From contig CBDEGZ010000003.1 of NCBI GenBank assembly GCA_965238175.1, positions 640,001 to 704,000 of the forward strand: a stretch of 64,000 nt of DNA. Reading direction: 5' to 3'. Under the pieces are notes generated by a model, which did not search any database, was not told where the DNA came from, and worked only from the letters and a program-made list of their open reading frames with translations. Positions 39,302 through 61,411 of this stretch are shown here, piece after piece. The position numbers were made by a program, and so were the translations under genes. The number at the start of each line of letters is the position of its first letter. Within the stretch, counting starts at the first letter, position 1. The DNA is from Gammaproteobacteria bacterium. GTDB taxonomy: Bacteria > Pseudomonadota > Gammaproteobacteria > CAJXQU01.

Positions 39302-39494
39302 TAACCGTGATACTTGGAAATGCTTCTTTGCAGGAGCGACTATGCGCATCGTCGTGTCTAGCTAGCCCTGAATAAAAAGAATACATCGCTCTGGACAACA
39401 GCTCCTGCGTTGTTCTACCTACGTGCATCCTGCACTCGTACCAACGCCATCCCTGAAGTTGTCTAAAACGCGCATTTCCAAGTATCACGGGGAT
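39302..39494. mobile_element. ERIC-like MITE upstream of aroK
   Basis: Perfect 19-bp TIR CCGTGATACTTGGAAATGC (39305) / GCATTTCCAAGTATCACGG (39490). Confidence 0.8.
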
Positions 39495-40166: not shown

Positions 40167-41246
40167 ATGAAAGCCTTAACTGTCGAATTGGGAGAACGTT
40201 CCTACCCTATCTATATTGGACAAGATCTACTAGGTCGATCAGAACTATATAACCAGCATATTCGTGGGCAACAGATACTGATTGTCACCAATACCACGGT
40301 GGCTCCGTTGTATCTCGGCATCCTCGAAAAAGCGTTAGAATTATATTCTGTTGAATCGGTCATTTTGCCTGACGGTGAGGAATATAAAACTTTACAGACT
40401 CTGGATTTGATCATGACGGCATTACTGGAGAAAAGGTTAGATCGTAGTGTCACTTTGATTGCATTAGGGGGGGGGGTAATCGGTGATATGGCCGGTTTCG
40501 CTGCGGCATGTTACCAGCGTGGTGTTGATTTTATTCAAGTACCGACGACATTATTATCTCAAGTAGATTCATCCGTTGGAGGCAAAACAGCTGTTAATCA
40601 TCCTCTTGGCAAAAATATGATCGGTGCTTTTTACCAACCTCGTTGTGTGATCGCTGACATTGACACACTTAACACGCTCGATGATCAGCAATTGAGTGCA
40701 GGTCTGGCAGAGGTGATCAAATATGGCATGCTTGGAAATCAAACATTTTTTGAATGGCAAGAAAAGCACATGTCAGAACTTATTGATCGTAATTCGGAAA
40801 AGTTGATCTATGCCGTTGAGCAGTCCTGTCAAGACAAAGCGGATATTGTTGCAAAAGACGAACGTGAGTCAGGTGTCCGTGCATTACTCAATCTCGGACA
40901 TACATTTGGACATGCGATAGAAGCCGGCATGGGTTATGGAAAATGGCTACATGGTGAGGCTGTAGCAGCGGGAATGGTGATGGCAATGGACTTATCACAA
41001 CGTTCAGGGTGGGTTACTGAGCAGGATACACAACGGCTGATCAGTTTACTTGAAGCCGCTAATCTACCCACCAAAGCACCACAAGAACTCTCTGCGGAAA
41101 AAATGTTAGAACTAATGGCAGTAGATAAAAAAGCCTCGCAAGGAATGATCAGACTAGTCTTGGTAAAAGCAATTGGTGAGACTATTGTGGCTGCAGAGTA
41201 CGATCAAAAGTTGTTAATGAAAACTCTAAGCAGTTGTTGCGATTGA
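40167..41246 (+). CDS. aroB: 3-dehydroquinate synthase
   Basis: [46 protein letters not shown]. Confidence 0.97.
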
Positions 41247-42407: not shown

Positions 42408-42452
42408 ATACCCGTGCTACTTGAAACTGCAGGTTTCAAGTAGCACGGGTAT
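42408..42452. repeat. Collapsed ERIC-like palindrome
   Basis: ATACCCGTGCTACTTGAAAC-TGCAG-GTTTCAAGTAGCACGGGTAT. Confidence 0.8.
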
Positions 42453-42512: not shown

Positions 42513-44549
42513 ATGCACATGGACGAACAAAATAACGATTTTTTTGCCCAACTAGGTTTAGATAGCGATCCCTTTCCTGCCGAGATAGATAGTTCTTTCT
42601 ATTTCGAAAATCCCGATCTGCTACAACGTCTGGATATGATCCAGCATTTGATCGGTTTCTCTAATCAGATGATATTTATCACTGGCCAACAAGGGGTTGG
42701 AAAAACCTCAATGCTGCATCGTTTGGAATATTATGCCCCAGAAAATTGGCGTATCTGTCGGATCCAGGCAAATCCGATGCTAAACACACCAACCCTGTTA
42801 CGTCTGCTAACTGATGGATTTGAGCTTGAAATTTCCGCGGATGCTGGTGATATGTTTCAGGTTTATACAGAGGCTCTACAAGCATACGTCCAAACACTTG
42901 AACGCGCTATGTTGAACCCCGTGGTTTTGATCGATAATGCCCACGAACTACCGGTCGATGCGTTCACTATGTTATTTGGTTTTATGCAGCAGGAAGGTAG
43001 TCATTCGGGTATGAAAATGGCATTGTTCTGTGAACCACAGATCAACGTCATGCTTGAGTCTCCGCAACTTAAATCTTTATCGCAGAATTTGACCCATCAA
43101 TTGGAAATTCCTTCGTTTGATGAAAAGCAAACGAGAGGCTACCTTGAACAAAGACTAATGCATGCTGGCCTTAGCAAAGATTTTCCCTTCCTTTCAGAAG
43201 TTGTACATAAAATCCACCGAGAATCGGGTGGGATCGCTGGCAAGATACATATACTTGCACAACAGGCTTTACTTGATGGAAGTACCCAAAATGAACCGCC
43301 ACCATTACCAGTGGTTGATGAGATAATGGATCTTGAAGATGATGCTACGCCTTCTGCAATGTCTGCCTCGAAGAGAGCAATAGAAAAAGTAGTGCCTATC
43401 GGTCGTAAGTTCCAGAGTTGGCAAATTGGGGTAGTGGCTGTCGTGTTTGTTCTACTCGCTGCTGTACTTTGGTTAACAAGTCAATTTGGTGATACAACCG
43501 AATCGATGATCGCTGAAGAGTTTCCCCGCGATTTAAAACCTGAGCAAGAAGATAACAATATAGAAGAGCCGGAAGCGCTTAATCCCAGTTTGTTCGTGGA
43601 AACTTCTTCTTCCGAGGAAGTTACTACGATTGAGCCAGAAACGGGTACAGAAAAAGGGCAGGATCTAGGTGCTAAAGAAACTGATTTTGTGAGAGGAGAA
43701 ACTTCGCTAGAAGAGCTAACCCAAAGAGAAGTAGTCGAAGAGATTGAAGTGATTGTTTCACCAGACGTTCGAAAAGAGGAAGCTTCAAAAGCTGAGAAAA
43801 ATAAGACCCATGCCCATGAGCCTGGTTTGAAAGAAGAAATAGTTGAACCGTATCGTCAGTTTGTAGAAGTTCTAGAAGTACCGGATAAAAAACCAGAGCA
43901 ACCAAGCGAAACAGCTCATCAGCAAAGTGAAATTACAGTTCAAATCGATGAAAATGGAAAACCTCAAGTTGTCGGTATTGAATTATCGGCAGCAGAATCG
44001 CTCAAAATAGTAGAAAAATTAATAGAAAATCAAGTGAGAAAACCAACAACCCGTTTGCCGGATGTAACGACAGAAACAGCTATTATTAATCAAAAAGAAA
44101 CACCAAAAGAACAGGCTTTAACTGCGGTAATTCAACCAGAACCTGCTATACAGGAACAAGCCATTACGAAAATACCTAAAAAAGATGTTGTAGCTACTTC
44201 AACAGCAATTGTTGAACAACAAGTTGAGCCATTAAGTACTCCATTTATTGGGATTAAAGATGGTGCCTGGTTGCGAGCACAAGATGATAATCTATTCGTG
44301 TTACAACTTTTGGGAACATATGATCAACTGGCAATGCGTAAGATTATTAATGAAAATCAGCTGGGTAATGTTGCGTGGTTTACAACGTTGCTTAATGATG
44401 AGCCGTGGTATGTCGTTGTAAAAGGACCGTTTATAGATAGTTCTTCAGCCACTGCTTCGGCGGTCTCACTGCCCGCTGAAATTCGTCGCCGCAAACCCTG
44501 GCCAAGAACAATAGCTAGTGTCAAAAAAGCGATGGATTTAATACAATGA
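42513..44549 (+). CDS. ExeA-like AAA ATPase + TM + SPOR domain protein (DamX-like)
   Basis: GQQGVGKT Walker A, LIDNAH, one TM, acidic linker, C-terminal SPOR (LQLLG, WYVVV.GPF, PWPR). Confidence 0.85.
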   Translation: MHMDEQNNDFFAQLGLDSDPFPAEIDSSFYFENPDLLQRLDMIQHLIGFSNQMIFITGQQGVGKTSMLHRLEYYAPENWRICRIQANPMLNTPTLLRLLTDGFELEISADAGDMFQVYTEALQAYVQTLERAMLNPVVLIDNAHELPVDAFTMLFGFMQQEGSHSGMKMALFCEPQINVMLESPQLKSLSQNLTHQLEIPSFDEKQTRGYLEQRLMHAGLSKDFPFLSEVVHKIHRESGGIAGKIHILAQQALLDGSTQNEPPPLPVVDEIMDLEDDATPSAMSASKRAIEKVVPIGRKFQSWQIGVVAVVFVLLAAVLWLTSQFGDTTESMIAEEFPRDLKPEQEDNNIEEPEALNPSLFVETSSSEEVTTIEPETGTEKGQDLGAKETDFVRGETSLEELTQREVVEEIEVIVSPDVRKEEASKAEKNKTHAHEPGLKEEIVEPYRQFVEVLEVPDKKPEQPSETAHQQSEITVQIDENGKPQVVGIELSAAESLKIVEKLIENQVRKPTTRLPDVTTETAIINQKETPKEQALTAVIQPEPAIQEQAITKIPKKDVVATSTAIVEQQVEPLSTPFIGIKDGAWLRAQDDNLFVLQLLGTYDQLAMRKIINENQLGNVAWFTTLLNDEPWYVVVKGPFIDSSSATASAVSLPAEIRRRKPWPRTIASVKKAMDLIQ

Positions 44550-44686
44550 GATCTTTGCACGAAAGCTATTTTCATCCCATGCGATGTTAAAACATTGCTT
44601 AACCGGTCATTTATCATGCATAAACTCCCTCTTTGCGCATGTTTTTGCCTTGCCTGGAAACGAAATATTCTTCCGTGCAAAGGTCT
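44549..44686. mobile_element. MITE with IS5/IS1106-like ends
   Basis: TIR AGATCTTTGCACG / CGTGCAAAGGTCT; touches the stop codon of the upstream gene. Confidence 0.7.
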
Positions 44687-44794
44687 GACAATAAATTAAC
44701 CACTCGTTAAACCTGACTACTCTATCCTCTTAAGAGAAACTCAGAAAACTCACCATTATTGAGCTTTTGGGTAATGCGTGTTCGTTCCTGAATC

Positions 44795-44823
44795 GTGACA
44801 TTTTGACAACTCGACGCTATACT
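44795..44823 (+). promoter_or_regulatory. sigma70 promoter of gltBD copy 1
   Basis: GTGACA-N17-TATACT upstream of the original ATG at 44866. Confidence 0.65.
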
Positions 44824-44875
44824 CTCCGGCCTTTTGCTTTCAATTGGACGAAAAAAGAAAGTTTCATGACATCTA

Positions 44876-45136
44876 TACCCAAGTTCCTTGAGAATGCCTG
44901 TTTCAGCGAGGCAATACGGTTTTGCAACAAGGCAACGTACGCAGGCAATGGTGGTTCCATTTCCAAGGACGTTAACGCGGTTGCAGAGCCGCATTGCCTC
45001 GCCTTTTGGGTGGTCATGAAGCCCTCCCTCGCGGCGTTCTGTTTTTTGATAATGGAACCACCGTTATCTGCAAAACAGGCCTTGTCAGGAAGCGCATCAT
45101 GACCACTGAAACAAGCACTCTCAAGGAACTTGGGTA
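44876..45136. mobile_element. 261-bp ERIC-like MITE inserted in the 5' end of gltB, TA duplication
   Basis: TIR TACCCAAGTTCCTTGAGA / TCTCAAGGAACTTGGGTA; TA at 44874-75 and 45137-38; excision restores ATG ACA TCT AGA ACT CAA. Confidence 0.9.
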
Positions 45137-48100
45137 TAGAACTCAAGCTCCTACTTCCGGCCTTTATCGCCCAGAATTCGAAAAAGACAATTGTGGTTTT
45201 GGTTTGATCGCTCATATGGATGGTAAGCCAAGTGTAAATCTTGTAAATACGGCAATTATTTCACTTTGTCGTTTGACGCATCGCGGTGCAGTTTCAGCCG
45301 ATGGAAAGACTGGTGATGGCTGTGGTTTATTAATGAAAAAACCACACGCATTTTTACAAGTTGTCGCCCAAGAAAATTTGTTTGATCTCGCTGAAGTTTA
45401 TGCGGTAGGCATGGTTTTTCTTAGCCATGATAAGGATCTCGCCAACACCACACGTCAAACACTCGAAAAAGAAATATCACAAGAAGGGTTGGAAGTCCTC
45501 GGCTGGCGAGAAGTGCCAGTTAATCCAGATGCTTGTGGTGAAGATGCGGCCTTATCACGACCACAAATTGAACAAATATTCGTCAATGCGCCCAAAGGCC
45601 TGTCAGAAGAAGATTTCAATCGTCATCTGTTCGTTGCTCGTCGTCGTACAGAAAAGGCATTAGAAGAAAATGATCCAGTCTTTTATATTCCGAGTCTATC
45701 TTCACATGTAATCTCTTATAAAGGTCTGGTGATGCCTGCCCATTTAGGTGAGTTTTATCTGGATCTAACGCATGAAAAAATGGCTTCATCGTTGTGTGTT
45801 TTCCATCAGCGATTTTCGACGAATACCTGGCCACAGTGGCGACTGGCTCAACCTTTTCGCTACCTCGCGCATAATGGTGAGATCAACACCATTCGAGGTA
45901 ATCGTAACTGGGCGTTGGCGCGTGGTGGAAATATTCAGTCAGTATTGATCCCTGATATGGAGGATATTTGTCCGTTTGTATCTCAATCTGGTTCGGACTC
46001 ATCTTCACTGGATAATATGCTAGAAGTGTTGATCGCAGGCGGCAAAGATATTTTCGAAGCGATGCGTATGTTGGTTCCACCTGCCTGGCAAAATATGGAA
46101 TTTATGGATCCGGATCTGCGAGCACTGTATCAATATAATGCGATGCGCATGGAGCCTTGGGATGGCCCTGCAGGAATTGTATTAACAGACGGTCGTTACG
46201 CGGCTTGCTTGCTCGACAGGAATGGCTTGCGTCCTTCTCGTTATGTGATCACAAAAGATCGACATATCACATTAGCCTCAGAGATTGGCGTTTATGAATA
46301 TGATCCTGCCGATGTGGTTGAAAAAGGTCGTCTTGGCCCCGGTCAAATGTTAGCGGTCGATACGCATACTGGCAAAATGATCCTGCCGCAAGAAGTCGAT
46401 GAGATGTTGAAATCCAGGCATCCGTATAAATCCTGGATCAATCAAAATACACAAGTTTTAGAAGCCCCGTTCAACTATGAACTTTTAACTGAGCATCCGT
46501 TGGAAAAAGATCAACTTGAAGCTTATTTAAAACTTTTCCAGGTGACCTACGAAGAGCGTGATCAAATTTTGCGCGTCCTTGCAGAAGCCGGTCAAGAAGC
46601 CATAGGCTCAATGGGCGATGATACGCCGATGCCGGTTTTGTCTGTACATACACGATCAGTTTTTGATAATTTCCGTCAGCAATTTGCCCAGGTGACCAAC
46701 CCTCCGATTGATCCGCTACGCGAAAATATCGTTATGTCACTGAATACCTATCTTGGTGCGGAGAAAAATCTGTTCGACGAAGGGCCACAACATACTGAGC
46801 GACTATTATTGAATTCGCCAATTATCGGCAGTGGGAAATTTCATAGTCTGTTAGAAGATAATCCGATGTTCGAGCATGAAAAACTCGATCTAAATTATCC
46901 GATAGATAGAGATCTAAAGTCCGCAGTAGAAAACCTTTGCGAGCAAGCGGTTAAGGCTGTCGAGAATGGTAAAACTTTATTAGTTTTATCGGATAGAAAT
47001 ATTTCCAATGATAAGTTGCCAGTTCATGCAGCGCTTGCCACTGGCGCGATCCATCACCGATTGATTGTGGAAGGTTCACGTTGTAAAGCAAACATTATTG
47101 TTGAAACAGCCACTGTACGCGATCCGCATCACTTTGCAGTATTGATCGGTTATGGTGCAAGTGCGGTTTATCCATTCCTTGCTTATCAAACGATAAACGA
47201 TATGGTTCGTAGAGGTGAGATCAAAAATCCTGATACCAATCGTTTGGCTAAATCTTATCGAAAAGGCATACAGAAAGGGCTACTGAAGATCCTCTCGAAA
47301 ATGGGGATTTCGACGATGACTAGTTATCGAGGTGCTCAGTTATTCGAGATCGTAGGTTTGAATGAGGATGTCGTTGATCTGTGTTTCTGCGGTACTGTCA
47401 GCCGAATTCAAGGCATGAGTTTCAGCGATATAGAAACAGATCTTAAGTCGCTTGCAAAAGAGGCCTGGAATAAACGTAAACCGATCCGCCAAGGTGGTTT
47501 ATTGAAATATATCCACGGTGGTGAATACCATGCCTACAATCCGGATGTTATACAGAAATTACATGCCGCAGTAGAAAGTGGTGATTTTGCAGACTATAAA
47601 GAATATGCCGATGAAGTGAATAATCGTCCGGCGACCGCTTTTCGCGATTTAATGAAACTGCGTGATGATGTTGAGTCTATTGAAATTGATCAAGTTGAAC
47701 CAATTGAAGAAATTTTAAGCCGTTTTGATTCAGCCGGCATGTCGCTAGGCGCACTTTCTCCTGAAGCGCACGAATCATTAGCAGTTGCGATGAATCGACT
47801 CGGTGGTCGATCAAATTCTGGTGAGGGTGGCGAAGATCCAATTCGCTATGGAACAGATAAAGTCTCCAAGATTAAACAAGTAGCTTCCGGTCGCTTTGGA
47901 GTAACGCCACATTATTTAGTTAATGCAGAAGTCTTGCAAATCAAAGTTGCACAAGGTGCTAAACCGGGTGAAGGTGGTCAATTACCGGGTGATAAAGTCA
48001 ATCCTATGATTGCGTCATTGCGCTTCTCCAAACCGGGCGTCGCATTAATTTCGCCACCACCACATCACGATATTTATTCGATTGAAGATTTGGCCCAACT

Positions 48101-49601
48101 AATTTTTGATCTAAAACAAGTTAATCCGCAGGCATTAGTTTCAGTAAAGTTGGTTGCCGAAGCAGGCGTTGGGACAATCGCTGTTGGTGTTGCAAAAGCC
48201 TATGCAGATTTGATCACGATTTCTGGATATGACGGTGGAACCGGTGCAAGCCCACTGACCTCTGTGAAATATGCCGGTGGGCCTTGGGAATTGGGCTTGA
48301 CCGAAACTCATCAGTCATTACGTGCGAATAATTTACGTAATAAAGTTCGTTTGCAAACTGACGGCGGTTTAAAAACCGGGCTAGACGTGATCAAAGGCGC
48401 GATCCTCGGTGCAGAATCGTTTGGCTTCGGCACAGGTCCAATGGTTGGGTTGGGTTGTAAGTATCTACGGATCTGTCATTTGAACAATTGTGCGACAGGC
48501 ATTGCCACACAAGATAAAGATCTGCGTACCTTACACTTCAAACCAAACGGCGTACAAAAAGTGATGAATTATTTCAAGTTTATTGCTCAGGATGTTCGTG
48601 AGTTAATGGCGCGATTAGGCGTAGCAAAAATGACCGATTTGATCGGGCGAACTGATCTATTGGAATTAATTGATGGAGCAACATCGCGACAAGGTAAACT
48701 TGATTTATCACCAATACTTTCTGATCATGGCATTGATACTGATAAGCCACGGTATTGTGATGAAGAAAAAAATGAACCCTACGATAAAGGTGAATTAGCC
48801 GAACAAATGTTGGATCAAATTCGCGATGCTGTGGTTAATAAAACCGGTGGCGAATTCAACTTCGATATACATAACTATAATCGCTCTATCGGTGCACGTT
48901 TGTCCGGTGAAATTGCCCGACATCATGGCAACCAAGGAATGACGGATAAACCAATCAAGATCAACTTGAAAGGTTCAGCCGGACAAAGTTTTGGTGTCTG
49001 GAATGCGGGTGGGTTGGAAATGAAACTCGATGGCGATGCGAATGATTATGTAGGTAAAGGCATGGCGGGCGGAAAACTCGTGATTGCGCCTCCTGCGGTA
49101 AGCACTTTTGAATCCCACAAAACCGTGATCATGGGCAATACTTGTCTTTACGGTGCGACGGGCGGAAAACTATTTGCAGCCGGTCAAGCAGGTGAACGTT
49201 TTGCTGTTCGTAATTCTGGAGTCACTACAGTTGTTGAAGGGATTGGTGACCATGGTTGTGAATACATGACGGGTGGCGTGGTCGTTGTGTTAGGTAAAAC
49301 CGGTGTTAATTTCGGTGCTGGCATGACTGGCGGGCTTTCCTTTGTTCTTGATATGGACAGGATTTTTTATGATCAATTTAATCACGAATTGATCGACACC
49401 CACCGACTCTTACCAGAAGATATGGAAGAATATCGCAGCTACCTTAAAGAATTGATCAGAGAGCATGTTGAAGAAACTGGTAGTGTTTTTGGTCAAGAAA
49501 TTTTGGAAAACTTTTCTGACTATGTCGGCAAATTTTGGCTGGTTATTCCGAAAGCTGCAGATTTGAATGAGCTACTTGGCAGTTTGCTCGACGCAGCCTA
49601 A
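45099..49601 (+). CDS. gltB: Glutamate synthase large subunit (copy 1; start codon supplied by the MITE)
   Basis: DN/CGFG Ntn Cys, [45 protein letters not shown]. Confidence 0.95.
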
Positions 49602-49607
49602 GCATAA

Positions 49608-51035
<1,428 letters not shown>

Positions 51036-55410: not shown

Positions 55411-56853
55411 CTAAACAGGCGCAGGCAGTTCAGAACTTCCCATCAAGTATTGATCAACGCCATGAGCGGCTGAACGTCCTTCGGCAATTGCCCAGACGAT
55501 TAGAGATTGACCTCTTTGCATATCGCCTGCGGTAAAAACACCTTTTTCACTGGTCATCCAGTTTTTGTCTGCAACGACATTTCCGCGACCATCAAGATCA
55601 ACATTTAGTTGTTCCAGCATTCCAGGTTTTTCTGGGCCAAGAAAGCCCATTGAGAGGAATGCAAAATCACAGGGTAATGTTTGTTCGCTGCCAGCGACTT
55701 CTTCAAAACTCATACGTCCGTCTTTATTGATCATTGCGACGCTGACCAATTCGAGTCCGCTGACATTACCATTTCCGTCATCGATAAAACGTTTGCTTGA
55801 AACAGAGTAGACACGTTTGACGCCTTCTTCATGTGCTGAAGCTGTGCGGTAAATGAGTGGCCATTGTGGCCACGGATTTGTTTCTGCACGAGCTTCTGGT
55901 GGTTTGGGCATAATCTCAAGTTGATGAACAGATTTTGCACCTTGTCGGTTGGCTGAGCCTAAACAATCAGCACCGGTGTCACCACCGCCGATAATGACAA
56001 CGTGTTTGTCTTTTACATCGATAAAGTTATCTGGTTTTGGATCACCTTCGCAGACTTTATTCTGCATCGGTAAATATTCCATCGCCTGATAAATTCCTTT
56101 GAGTTCACGACCTGCAACGGGTAGATCGCGGGCGTGACATGCGCCGCCGGTGAGTAGTAATGCGTCGTAGTCTGATCGTAATTGTTCAACTGAAATATTG
56201 TCTCCAACATGTGCATTGGTTTTGAAGGCCACACCTTCAGCTTCCATTTGATCCATACGTCGATCAAGACGACTTTTTTCCATTTTGAATTCTGGTATTC
56301 CATATCGCATTAGACCACCAATCCGATCTGCTCTTTCAAAGACTGTGACGTCATGACCTGCGCGAGCAAGTTGTTGCGCTGCAGCTAATCCTGCTGGGCC
56401 TGATCCAACTATTGCGATGGTTTTGCCTGTTTTGTTTTCTGCAATTTCAGGTTTGATCCAACCTTCTTCAAAACCTTTGTCGATGATCGCTAGTTCTACA
56501 GATTTGATCGTGACAGGATCGTCATTGATGCCTAATACACAAGAGCCTTCACATGGAGCAGGACAAAGTGTGCCGGTGAATTCGGGGAAGTTATTGGTGG
56601 CGTGCAAACGATCGAGGGCATCTTCCCATTGATTGCGATAAACCAGATCATTCCAGTCAGGGATGAGATTACCTAATGGGCAACCTTCATGACAAAATGG
56701 AATGCCACAGTCCATACAACGTGCTGCTTGCTTCTTCAACGGCTCTTCAGGCACGGGCTGCATGACTTGTTTGTAATCTTTTAGTCGTTCGTCGACAGGC
56801 CGGTAAGGTTGCGCTAGACGATCAAATTCCATAAATCCAGTTACTTTACCCAT
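55411..56853 (-). CDS. gltD: Glutamate synthase small subunit (copy 2; MGK.TGF type, often NADH-linked)
   Basis: [57 protein letters not shown]. Confidence 0.95.
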
Positions 56854-59800
56854 GAGCAGCCTCCATGACTGCAGCGTCTACCGACGTGCCTTCTTTTTCT
56901 GCCTTTTCGATCGCTGCGAGTACGCGCTTGTAATCCCTTGGCATGACTTTGATAAATTTATACTGATAGCTGGTCCAGTCATTCAGAATGCGTTTTGCCA
57001 GCGTGCTATGTGTGTATTCCGCGTGGTTATGAAGTAACGATTTGATCGTTTCTACATCGCTATCATCTTCGACTCTTTCAAGGTCAACCATGCCAAGATT
57101 ACAATTATCGCGGAACTGATTTTTATCCATAAGGACATAAGCAATACCGCCGGACATGCCTGCAGCAAAATTTCTGCCGGTTGGGCCAAGAACCACAACG
57201 CGGCCGCCGGTCATGTATTCACAACCGTGATCGCCAATCCCTTCAACAACGGTACTGACGCCACTGTTTCTAACCGCAAAGCGTTCACCGGCCAGACCAC
57301 GAATATAAGCCTCACCTGTGGTGCCACCGTAAAGTAATACATTACCGACGATGACATTATCTTCAGGAGCAAAACTGCTATTTCGTGGTGGATAAACAAT
57401 AATTTTTCCGCCAGATAAACCTTTTCCGAGGTAATCGTTAGCATCACCTTCAAGCGTTAGCGTAACGCCTTTAGGAACAAATGCTCCAAAACTCATTCCT
57501 GCCGAACCATTGAAATGGATGTTGATCGTGTCTTCAGGAAGTCCTTCTGATCCGTAACGCTTGCTGATGTTGTAACCCAAAATGGTTCCTACAGAACGAT
57601 TCGTGCTCAACACGGGGACGATAATATCGACGGGCTTTTTGTCTTCAATTGCTTCCTTACATAAAGGTAGCAGGGTTTTCATATCTAGTGATTTATCAAG
57701 ACCGTGATCTTGTTCGTTGACTTGATAAATGCCAACACCGGGAGCAGCGTCTTCTTTATGTAGAATGGCTGAAAAATCCAGACCATGTGCTTTCCAATGA
57801 TCAATCGCAGGTCGGGTTTCTAATTGATCAACTTGGCCGACCATTTCATTAATGGTTCTAAAACCAAGCTTTGCCATATATTCGCGGACTTCTTCAGCAA
57901 TATATTTGAAAAAGTTTTCAACGAATTCTGGTTTGCCAGCGAATTTTTTACGTAACTCAGGATTTTGTGTCGCAATCCCAACTGGGCAGGTATTCAGATG
58001 ACAGGCACGCATCATAATGCAACCCATCACCACTAGAGGTGCTGTGGAGAATCCATATTCTTCCGCACCCAGAAGAGTGGCGATAACGACATCTCGACCA
58101 GTTTTAAGCTGACCATCGGTTTGTACAACGATCCGGTCGCGTAATTTATTTTTGACTAATACTTGTTGGGTTTCGGCTACGCCTAATTCCCACGGCAGCC
58201 CCGCATGTTTTAATGAACTCATTGGAGATGCGCCGGTGCCGCCGTCATAACCTGAGACTAAAACGACATCGGAATGTGCTTTTGCAACACCTGCAGCAAC
58301 GGTTCCTACGCCGACTTCTGCAACCAGCTTTACATGAACTCTGGCTTTTGGATTGGCATTTTTTAGATCGTGGATTAATTGGGCTAAATCTTCGATCGAA
58401 TAAATATCATGATGCGGCGGCGGCGATATTAAACCTACGCCGGGAGTAGAATGACGAACTTTAGCTATCCACGGATAGACTTTTGGCCCTGGTAATTGAC
58501 CACCTTCACCCGGTTTTGCTCCTTGCGCCATTTTGATTTGAATATCGTCGGCATTGGCCAGATATTCTCCGGTGACACCAAAGCGGCCTGAAGCAACTTG
58601 TTTGATTGAGCTACGGCGTAAGTCACCGTTTTCGTCTGGTGTAAACCGATCAGGATTTTCCCCGCCTTCGCCAGTATTGGATTTTCCACCAAGTCGATTC
58701 ATGGCGATGGCCAGCGTTTCGTGTGCTTCACCGCTGATAGAACCATATGACATCGCGCCGGTTGAAAAGCGTTTCATGATGTTTTCTATCGGTTCGACTT
58801 CTTCTAAAGGAATCGATTGTCGTTCAGTCTTGAATTCAAATAAGCCACGTAATGTTGCCAGCTTTTCGCTTTGATCATTGACCAGATCGGTATATTCCTT
58901 AAAGATCTTATATTGACCACTGCGAGTCGCGTGCTGCAATTTGAAAACAGTTTCTGGATTGAATAAATGATATTCGCCATCGCGTCGCCATTTGTACTCG
59001 CCACCCCATTCCAGAGCAGGTTTTTTCGATGGTCGTTCAGGAAATGCGTGTTGATGACGTAAGCTCATTTCCTCTGCGATCTCTTCAAGACCAATGCCGC
59101 CGATGCGTGACGCTGTCCAGGTGAAATATTGATCAACAAATTCTTTATTCAAACCAATCGCTTCAAATACTTGTGCGCCACGGTAAGATTGAACCGTAGA
59201 AATTCCCATTTTCGCCATGGTTTTGATCAAGCCTTTGTTTATGGCTTTGATATAGTTTTTGACTGCTTTTTCGTGGCCAATATTTTCTATATAACCTTTT
59301 CCGATCATGTCACCCAACGACTCAAAAGCGAGATACGGGTTGACTGCGCCGATGCCATAGCCGATCAAAACCGCGAAATGATGAACTTCTCTTGGTTCAC
59401 CCGATTCGAGAATTAAACCAATGCGGGTTCGGGTTCCTGATCTGATCAGATGATGATGTACGCCAGCTGTAGCCAATAATGGTGGAATTGCAGTCATGCT
59501 CTGATCAATTCCTCGATCAGAAAGAATGATATTTGTGTAGCCTTCTTCGATTGCAATATCGATTTGGGCGTAAACATCTTTCAGCGCTTTGTCTAAGCCT
59601 TTTCCGCCTTCTTTAACAGAGTACAAAATGGCCACGGATTTGGTTTTAAAGCCCGGCAGATTAACATCGCGAATTTTTGCCAGTTCTTCATTGGACAAAA
59701 TCGGCGAGTGAATTTTGATTTGACGACAACTTTCTGGAGCGGGTTCAAGTAAATTACCTTCTGGCCCAACCGTTGTTGCGATCTGAGTCACTAATTCTTC

Positions 59801-61411
59801 ACGAATTCCATCCAGTGGTGGGTTGGTGACTTGCGCAAAAAGCTGTTTGAAATAATCGTATAAAAGTCGAGAACGATCAGAAAGTACTGCCAGTGCAGTA
59901 TCTGTTCCCATTGATCCGGTAGGTTCGAGCCCATTGTTGGCCATCGGTGCCATCAAGGTTTTTAGATCTTCATGCGTATAACCGAACGCTTGCTGGCGTT
60001 GTAATAGTGTGTCGGTGTCTGAACCGTGGATCTGTTTTGGATCAGGCAATTGATCGACTGGAATAAGATGTTCTTGTAGCCACTCAGCATAAGGATGTGC
60101 GGTAGAGAATTCTTTTTTCAACTCTTCGTCATCGATAATCCGCTTTTGTTTGGTATCGACCATAAAGATCCGACCCGGATGCAGACGATCTTTATACAAA
60201 ACATTTTCTGGTGGAATATCGAGCACGCCGACTTCGGATGCCATTACAACCATGCCATCTTTAGTGACGTAATAACGTGAAGGGCGTAAACCGTTTCTAT
60301 CCAGTACGGCACCTATCACGTCGCCATCCATAAATGCGACGGAGGCCGGGCCATCCCAAGGTTCCATCAGACAGGCGTGATATTCATAAAATGCTTTTCG
60401 CTCAGCATCCATAGAATCGTTACCACTCCATGCTTCTGGGATCATCATCAAAACAGAATGCGGTAATGAGCGCCCCGTCATATGTAAAAATTCCATGACA
60501 TTATCGAATGTTGCCGAATCACTGCCGCCTTCAATTACGATCGGGAATAGCTTTTTAAGGTCATCTCCGAATAGTTCGGATTCACATAAAGCTTCGCGTG
60601 CGCGCATCCAGTTGGCATTACCACGGGCGGTGTTTATCTCACCATTATGTGCAATATACCTGAACGGGTGAGCCAGTTTCCAGGCTGGGAATGTATTGGT
60701 TGAAAAGCGTTGATGAACTAAAGCCATTGCCGATTCAAAATCTGGATCGCTTAGATCTGGGAACATTGGTTCGAGTTGAGGGCCCGTCAACATACCTTTA
60801 TATATAAAAGTTCTATATGACAAAGATGGGATATAGAATCGATCATTTTCTGAAAGATCAGAACTCCAGATTGTATGTTCAGCAAGTTTGCGGATCACAT
60901 ACAGTTTTCGTTCAAATGAGGCTTCATCTTTAACATCTTTGCCGCGGCCGATAAAAATTTGTCTAAAGGTAGGCTCACCCGAAATCGCAGTAGGGCCGAG
61001 TAGTCTGTCATCGGTAGGAACGTCGCGCCAGCCGAGTAATTCTTGTCCTTCCTGGAGGATAAGCTCTTCGAGAATAGATTGGCATTTTTTTGATTGATCA
61101 GGATCGTTGGGGAGGAAGATTAAACCAGCACCGTAATGACTATATTCAGGAAGATCAATATTTAATTCTTTACAGACACGTTGGAAAAATTTGTCAGGGG
61201 TTTGCGTGAGAATGCCAACACCATCACCGGTGTTTTCTTCACAACCGCAGGCGCCGCGGTGGATCAAATTTTGTAGGATAGTTAAAGCGTTATCGATAAT
61301 CTTGCGCGATTTTCGACCTTTAATATCCACAACAAAACCTACCCCGCATGCATCATGTTCGAATTGCGGGTCATAGAGAGCACTCGCTGGAGGATAACTT
61401 TTTTGCATCAT
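56846..61411 (-). CDS. gltB: Glutamate synthase large subunit (copy 2)
   Basis: HDA/CGVG Ntn Cys, [45 protein letters not shown]. Confidence 0.96.

Follow-up and report, generated by a model that had tools for sequence, protein, structure and literature searches.

The 64,000-nt stretch of DNA analyzed here, which we call the window, comes from the metagenome-assembled genome (G000, three contigs, C1 to C3) of an uncultured gammaproteobacterium. It contains gltB, a glutamate synthase gene, and between the third and fourth codons of this gene lies a miniature inverted-repeat transposable element (MITE). We will focus on this element, which carries a ribosome-binding sequence and an overlapping stop and start codon through which gltB is probably still translated, and on a second copy of it, which occupies the same kind of position in trpB, the gene for the tryptophan synthase beta subunit. 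Six further genomes of the same genus (G001 to G006) were used for comparison; the GTDB order comprises just these seven genomes, and G002 is the nearest sequenced relative, taken as sister in the branch tests. The window was also compared with the Logan contigs of sequencing runs, among them X1, X6 and X8. Run X1 is possibly the source sample of G000, and it can rule out an assembly artefact without standing for an independent population.

The MITE at the start of gltB

The element is 261 bp long and, together with one copy of the TA dinucleotide present on both of its sides, it makes up an insertion of 263 bp that shifts the gltB frame at the third codon, as an initial annotation of this DNA had claimed. 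Its terminal inverted repeats match at 23 of 25 nt, and the arms extend to 40 nt with 90% complementarity when the flanks are included. Between them are two hairpin modules, the first of which contains an inverted repeat of its own (I3, 44906-44928 with 44980-45002). The RNA of the element is predicted to fold into a long outer stem, formed by the inverted repeats, and two inner hairpins, with a minimum free energy of -140.1 kcal/mol. Shuffled sequences fold at -77.9 ± 5.2 kcal/mol (z = -12), and none out of 200 was as stable as the element, in agreement with its earlier description as a structured MITE.

The native start codon of gltB (44866-44868) is conserved in all six same-genus genomes. 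The boxes of the promoter-like site upstream of it are likewise kept in the six, and the good promoter that had been proposed there is borne out by this conservation and by its match to the consensus (Table 1). No terminator-like site was found in the region, and no outward promoter toward gltB was found in the element. The open reading frame (ORF) that starts at the native ATG begins MTSIPKFLENAC, and its conceptual peptide runs for the 78 residues that had been announced, up to a TGA inside the element. This stop overlaps, in an ATGA, an ATG from which the gltB frame can be read over 1500 aa, to 49601. Between the upstream stop in that frame (44973) and the codon of the first cysteine of the mature enzyme (Cys1, 45192) no other ATG is in frame, and the AGGA that had been reported to precede this one is separated from it by an 8-nt spacer. 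The genome encodes the corresponding 16S rRNA tail, CACCTCCTT, with the usual CCTCC.

The restart site is embedded in the second hairpin. The ATGA lies within the self-complementary GGTCATGACC, and the 5' arm of this hairpin, CCCTCCCT, pairs with the AGGAAG of the restart Shine-Dalgarno (SD) sequence. In the predicted ensemble, the two G of the AGGA and the whole of the restart ATG have a pairing probability >0.99 at both gltB and trpB (unpaired probability <=0.003 at gltB), and the first base of the native ATG is unpaired with a probability of 0.99 at gltB and 0.98 at trpB. Being buried in a hairpin, the restart site should become accessible only through its unwinding by ribosomes that arrive from the native start. 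The hairpin is symmetric, and an initiation signal, GGAGG-N5-ATGA, is thus present on the opposite strand as well.

The relatives give the state of the locus before the insertion. In six out of six same-genus genomes the site is uninterrupted and reads ATG-AC(C/A)-TCT/TCA-AAA-ACA-CAA, which opens a presequence of 21 residues followed by CGFG; these are the empty-site alleles that the initial annotation had suggested looking for. Excision of the element with one TA restores a 21-residue presequence in G000, and the excision product that had been deduced from the window agrees with the presequence of the relatives except for an R in place of a K. Run X6 contains a related organism, a contig of which lacks 44876-45140 and carries two other letters instead, and thus shows an empty site as well. 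As far as sequences can tell, the insertion postdates the split from the nearest sequenced relative. The genome being a three-contig assembly from an uncultured organism, and the best-matching run being possibly its own source, one could suspect that the insertion was made by the assembly. We regard such an artefact as next to impossible: in X1, contigs from a separate assembly cover the left junction (44600-44903) and the element with the right junction (44879-45400) with 0 differences, and they break only inside the inverted repeat; the target duplication is exact, and so are the empty sites. The insertion is thereby present in the reads, a point on which the initial annotation had made its own reading depend.

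Table 1. Position of the features discussed in the text, in window coordinates
Feature	Position	Strand	Remarks
Native gltB promoter-like site, GTGACA-17-TATACT	44795-44823	+	10/12 consensus positions
Leader ORF, 78 codons	44866-45102	+	native ATG, two native codons, T of TA, read-through of the element, TGA 45100-45102
Left TA of the target-site duplication	44874-44875		empty sites have a single TA (TCTAAA) here
261-bp MITE, ends TACCCAAGTTCCTTGAGA, two internal hairpin modules	44876-45136	+	
Inner hairpin module, 96 nt = 32 leader codons, missing from the trpB copy	44902-44997	+	single 96-column gap in the pairwise alignment; edges alignment-dependent
Second hairpin	45005-45111	+	inverted repeat I4: 45005-45029 with 45087-45111
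SD core AGGA of the restart site	45087-45090	+	8 nt 5' of the ATG; same sequence in the trpB copy
Restart ATG overlapping the leader stop (ATGA)	45099-45102	+	ATG 45099-45101, TGA 45100-45102
gltB as restarted (predicted), 1500 aa, 31-residue presequence before Cys1 (45192-45194)	45099-49601	+	NF008730, 2569.6 bits, cut-off 1047
Right TA of the target-site duplication	45137-45138		
gltD, downstream in the same operon	49626-51035	+	TIGR01318, 747.5 bits
Second intact gltB-gltD pair	55411-61411	-	gltB 56846-61411, NF008730, 1751.3 bits; gltD 55411-56853, TIGR01317, 726.7 bits

The copy in trpB and the wider family

The other element with close paired ends, the second of the two found genome-wide, lies at G000:C3:2693555-2693719 (locus L002, 1503-1667). 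It is 165 bp long, and its terminal repeats match at 24 of 25 nt. Its alignment with the gltB copy shows 10 differences over the 165 shared positions (93.9% identity) and a single gap of 96 nt, which corresponds to the first inner hairpin. The initial annotation had raised the question of whether other copies of the MITE carry the same ATG, and this one does, the two copies having the same letters from AGGA to the end of ATGA.

This copy is inserted between codons 4 and 5 of trpB. The native ATG (C3:2693732, minus strand) has a GGAG upstream and is followed by three more native codons, after which the frame enters the element and gives a leader of 47 codons, MALEIPKFLENACLALWEV...GSAS, that closes on a TGA. 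This TGA overlaps the ATG at C3:2693592 (ATGA 2693592-2693589, minus strand) within the identical AGGAAGCGCATCATGA (AGGA-N8-ATGA). The restart ATG is in the TrpB frame, its conceptual product reads MTAETGILKELGYKTQTLPDERGHFGEYGG, and the restarted protein is predicted to start (M)TAETGILK. The trpB copy shares with the gltB copy not only its orientation but also its codon phase, the T of the target TA being at codon position 3 in both.

The empty site in G002 reads ATGGCTGTAGATAGCACC; there, the trpF stop TAG overlaps the trpB start, in GGAGTAAGCA-ATG GCT GTA GAT AGC ACC CAA ACG. The trpB copy is flanked by GA and TA, one substitution away from TA and TA, and the reconstructed site equals that of G002 in length and frame. 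In G000 the trpF frame extends 13 nt into the left inverted repeat of the element and stops at its TGA, which gives the C-terminus ...NGFRDTQVS, as compared with ...NGCR in G002. The operon is made of trpF and trpB followed by ORFs of 275, 290 and 436 codons, which by position and size would be trpA, accD and folC.

A MITE of this type can enter a gene in six combinations of orientation and phase. Enumerating them, we found that two of the six (forward phase 3 and reverse phase 2) give an open leader ending on an in-frame SD-ATGA, and both copies occupy one of these two competent combinations. The two copies belong to a wider family with the end plan TACCC(G/A)..ACTTGGAA, TA flanks and a two-hairpin build, of which about 14 further paired elements are found in G000. 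An SD-N4-10-ATGA is present in none of these 14, and none has the restart layout. Ten of them overlap no ORF of at least 90 codons, and the remaining four overlap a stop-to-stop ORF of at least 90 codons. Two of these four were inspected closely and interrupt no gene; one lies just 5' of a GTG start and the other touches only the open stretch before a downstream ORF. The end motif of the family has 25 occurrences in G000 (control count 0) and is absent from the six same-genus genomes. With their terminal inverted repeats, a TA duplication with an empty site, a small size and several copies, the elements have the features expected of MITEs.

An autonomous insertion sequence with the same ends was not found: the search returned a single DDE_3 fragment at 27.5 bits (cut-off 28.6), with no matching ends beside it. 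No transposase ORF was recognized beside 13 unpaired ends, as judged by the first residues of the ORFs only. No cognate insertion sequence having been found, the label of IS630/Tc1-mariner-like element relies on the TA duplication and the inverted repeats. The searches outside the genome can be told together, G000 itself being outside some of the collections. The exact end motif had 0 matches in one genome per species, and across 400 genomes of the class, one of them not scored, it was matched in G000 only. BLAST of the element against the six same-genus genomes gave one weak partial match in G002 (75% over 93 nt). In metagenome contigs, the 18-mer of the end motif was met at 106 loci, with one match each, and none extends beyond 27 nt against the element; two of the longer metagenome matches (L081 and L126) have no transposase ORF adjoining. 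The element had no match in the plasmid collection and none in Rfam at E values up to 1. At the protein level, no homologue of the 78-aa leader peptide was found among proteins of 42-137 aa, and the element-derived N-terminus of GltB was not seen in the 10 N-termini inspected out of 120 homologues listed. Among these listed homologues, the best matches to the first 45 GltB residues span only the native 71%.

Several further observations concern the family. The right flanks of the two copies, TA-GAACTCAAG (45137-45150) and TA-AGACCCAAA (C3:2693554-2693541, minus strand), resemble the element end TACCCAAG; this resemblance and the shared (K/R)-T-Q may come from chance or from a target preference, between which two sites cannot decide. 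In the window, further members of the wider family lie at 39302-39493 (192 bp) and at 42409-42451. The latter is a bare pair of ends of 43 bp, in the gap that separates the stop of an ORF from the start region of a 678-aa gene, the one upstream of gltB. At G000:C3:58277-58527, a member of 251 bp in reverse orientation comes four codons downstream of an ATG whose GGAGGA is strong; this frame (MKQFIPKLLTNAVFSEA...) has 82 codons and ends inside the element with no gene after it, and it may be a destroyed small gene, or chance. Two other members, G000:C3:495895-496009 and 40650-40752, end 6 nt and 4 nt 5' of a start codon (ATG and GTG, respectively), so the ribosome-binding region of those two genes is element sequence.

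An unrelated MITE of 140 bp (44548-44687), with the ends GAGATCTTTGCACGAAAG and CTTCCGTGCAAAGGTCTG, sits between the upstream gene and the gltB promoter. It is flanked by a 5-bp duplication, ACAAT, at 44543-47 and 44688-92, and G002 is without it here (AATACAATAAATTAACCA). Its first two bases rebuild the stop of the upstream gene, which is TGA as compared with TAA in G002. It has 12 BLAST matches in the genome and is partly matched by several contigs of X1 and X8. As for the small contigs of the assembly, C1 has 10,967 bases at 55.8% G+C and C2 has 8,481 bases at 43.9% G+C, the main contig being at 40.4% G+C; C1 may be foreign to the organism.

Integrity of the interrupted genes and their proteins

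gltB and trpB are both intact, with neither a stop codon nor a frameshift across the 1469 codons of the former and the 393 codons of the latter, and their amino-acid changes are not in excess. The mature GltB has 1469 aa, as in G002 and G006, and 1470 aa in G004, G001 and G005. Parsimony was used to assign the codon changes, the sister being G002 and the outgroup G006, and the assignment was repeated with G004 and G001 as outgroups. For gltB, the synonymous and non-synonymous changes number 153/14 on the G000 branch vs 122/18 on the G002 branch; the figures are 134/17 vs 142/13 with G004 and 132/8 vs 130/10 with G001. For trpB they are 41/0 vs 48/3 on the sister branch, and 35/1 vs 46/4 and 40/1 vs 37/2 with the other outgroups. 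The four-fold-site difference between G000 and G002 is 0.44. If half of the divergence between the two MITE copies postdates insertion, neutral evolution should have put about 5.7 stop codons into gltB, and none is present.

The motif HTGAHKIN, which we take to be the site of the lysine that binds pyridoxal phosphate, is retained in TrpB. In G000, tblastn finds a single trpB; a second trpB exists in four of the six same-genus genomes. As for gltB, gltD and then hemE lie downstream of it, and a second gltBD pair is located 12 kb away, with a gltB that is 41% identical to the first. Weaker second gltB-like matches, of 200 residues at 36-41% identity, also exist in three relatives, where the frame around them is open over 1529-1538 aa (G002 and G006) or 444 aa (G001). 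The second pair could serve as a backup for glutamate synthase activity.

The consequences of a restart for the proteins would be limited to their N-termini. The initial annotation had assumed a cleavable leader before Cys1, and solved structures agree with it, as the PDB chains 1ea0_A, 2vdc_A and 1llw_A start at a residue aligned with Cys32 of GltB; in the precursor sequences of other PDB entries, that cysteine stands at about residue 37 and residue 22. Among the 120 homologues listed, the annotated presequences have 15-53 residues with a mode of 20 (50/120), so the 31-residue presequence of the restarted GltB is within the natural range. Its last 18 residues, next to Cys1, are native and belong to the presequence of 21 residues that preceded the insertion. 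A restarted TrpB would have an N-terminus longer by 10 residues.

A candidate mechanism, its rivals and its precedents

We consider it probable that gltB and trpB are made by termination-reinitiation through the stop/restart module borne by the element, judging from its sequence and its modelled fold. Transcription would proceed from the native promoter, and ribosomes would start at the native ATG. They would translate the leader, 78 codons at gltB and 47 at trpB, through the element and thereby unwind the hairpin; termination at the TGA would be followed by a new initiation at the ATG that overlaps it, in the frame of the gene. Leader peptides such as FLENACFSEAIR would be made on the way. 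In the case of GltB, the 31-residue presequence would then be removed, which would expose Cys1 and leave the mature enzyme unchanged. This scheme builds on the anatomy of the insertions, on their empty sites and the second copy, on the integrity of the genes and on the burial predicted for the restart site; the restart itself, its dependence on the leader ORF and the cleavage of the longer presequence are what one would expect from them. That the insertion is tolerated, as had been proposed from gltB, fits all computable evidence, and the same layout of ATG, leader and ATGA at trpB strengthens the proposal.

The layout shared by the two copies would result from a selection filter on position, orientation and phase, through which insertions of this subfamily may persist in genes only in the first few codons and in a competent orientation and phase. 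A bolder idea, to which we give tentative and rather limited credence, is that the MITE lineage evolved a portable, strand-symmetric stop/restart module as an adaptation to colonize the first codons of essential genes, which are closed to other transposons. The module in question would be the self-complementary GGTCATGACC set between SD and anti-SD arms, which would provide an SD-ATGA on either strand.

Several points weigh against the restart and against the filter. Only two copies are known, from one metagenome-assembled genome, and the pattern is not comparable across hosts. The chance that both copies are restart-competent by orientation and phase is (2/6)^2 = 1/9. Both targets share TA-RR-AC-Y-CAA and encode (K/R)-T-Q, and a target preference could explain the shared orientation and phase without selection. 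With a second intact gltBD pair, the first gltB could be dispensable, and the tryptophan prototrophy of this uncultured organism is an assumption. The branch test averages over a long branch and is blind to a very recent loss of function, and the copies may have diverged before inserting, in which case the argument from neutral decay fails. Finally, double-strand RNases might be drawn to such a long perfect stem in the mRNA, or ribosomes be slowed by it, and expression would then be lower.

These points partly coincide with those that can be invoked for recent knock-outs, in which gltB, and perhaps trpB, would be young undecayed pseudogenes and the in-frame ATGA a coincidence of the palindromic hairpin. 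A complete gltBD pair is in reserve, the organism could import tryptophan, the restart site is inside a structure of -140 kcal/mol, the orientation and phase alone yield only p = 1/9, and the restriction of the element family to this species among the seven genomes of the genus suggests a recent arrival. We nevertheless find knock-outs unlikely, because the two insertions fall in the first five codons of genes that are long and conserved, with a competent orientation and phase, and because trpB is single-copy in the genome. Neither gene has acquired a stop or a frameshift, and non-synonymous changes are not raised (14/167 for gltB and 0/41 for trpB). The 6% divergence of the copies and the mutation of one trpB TA to GA also argue against very recent events.

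The genes might be expressed without coupling, if ribosomes bound the SD-ATG of the element directly after RNase processing or a transient opening of the hairpin, the leader being irrelevant. Transcripts of some bacterial MITEs, the Correia elements, are cut by RNase III. An AGGA placed 8 nt from an ATG is a competent initiation site by itself, yet SD and ATG are paired at >0.99 in the predicted ensemble at both loci, and cleavage of the outer stem would detach the restart site from the promoter-proximal RNA while leaving the inner hairpin closed. Moreover, at both loci the leader frame stays open (78 and 47 codons) and its end coincides exactly with the ATGA, and direct binding would need neither of these features. 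The contribution of the SD to coupling is reported to differ between genes (PMC6728339), which leaves some room for direct initiation, and we hold it to be slightly less probable than the knock-outs. Far less probable than either is a start of gltB at another codon in the element, such as the TTG at 44994 that heads the longest ORF (44994-49601, 1535 aa) and that gene-calling software may choose, even though in-frame TTG and CTG/ATC candidates exist: the presequence would have 62-66 residues, beyond the 15-53 of the listed homologues. The TTG codons at 44994 and 45006 have no Shine-Dalgarno sequence in the upstream 20 nt, and both are within paired stems.

Insertions in a coding sequence are usually scored as gene-killing, and annotation pipelines would call frameshifts or wrong starts here, which is relevant to the pseudogene counts of metagenome-assembled genomes. 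In the present case two core biosynthetic genes, gltB for glutamate synthase and the only trpB for the beta subunit of tryptophan synthase, seem to survive thanks to a ribosome-binding site and an overlapping stop and start that the transposon itself carries in. If restart is true, some MITEs are built to be harmless in the 5' ends of genes, and they offer a natural, compact and orientation-independent coupling element that could be used in synthetic biology. If, in addition, the idea of an adaptation were true, a host gene would be placed under a transposon-made leader peptide and a hairpin opened by ribosomes, that is, under a mobile coupling cassette and possibly a new regulatory layer.

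The closest precedent is that of MIRUs, the interspersed repetitive units of mycobacteria. Their architecture is that of repeats; unlike them, the MITE has terminal inverted repeats, a TA duplication and a double hairpin of 165-261 bp that hides the restart, and there is no sequence relationship between the two. An ORF within the MIRU is coupled to the gene at a spacing of -4 nt, likely with a minimal effect on expression (PMC12548453, citing Supply et al. 1997). As with MIRUs, a mobile repeat would here be coupled to a gene by a stop/start overlap, which is present at both gltB and trpB. The difference is that MIRUs insert at the start codon (PMC12548453), whereas this MITE inserted at a TA after codon 3 (gltB) or codon 4 (trpB), with the native start heading the leader. 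The idea is thus less new than the initial annotation implied, as MIRUs already are mobile repeats coupled by a -4 overlap (PMC12548453). Among the papers listed for MITEs, transposable elements or insertions together with translational coupling or restart, none is about a bacterial MITE with a restart module. What is new here is an inverted-repeat, TA-duplicating element inside a reading frame, with the native start heading a leader, a restart hidden in a hairpin and a competence on both strands, the principle being precedented by MIRUs. If the restart is true, it extends the MIRU idea to inverted-repeat transposons and to insertion within a reading frame.

Native gene pairs and artificial constructs complete the comparison. 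Experiments on 14 gene pairs with ATGA overlaps demonstrated strict termination-reinitiation in 13 of them (Huber et al. 2019, PMC6728339). The two loci resemble these native coupled pairs in their ATGA overlap, in the SD located inside the upstream ORF and in the predicted dependence on upstream translation; they differ from them in that the upstream ORF is an accidental, transposon-made leader and the restart signals are supplied by the element. Enterobacterial ERIC-like repeats (RU-1/2/3), which are small and MITE-like, occur within annotated genes, fused in frame to ORFs, and add N- or C-terminal residues (Delihas 2007, PMC2759123). These are in-frame fusions, and that article has no leader ORF, no stop/start overlap and no occurrence of "start codon" or "initiation". 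The synthetic coupling cassettes and bicistronic designs (PMC12548453, PMC11602170) have, as would be the case here, a short upstream ORF that brings ribosomes to a downstream start with a ribosome-binding site masked by structure. Those cassettes are engineered, whereas this MITE is natural and mobile, and is predicted to work from either strand of the element.

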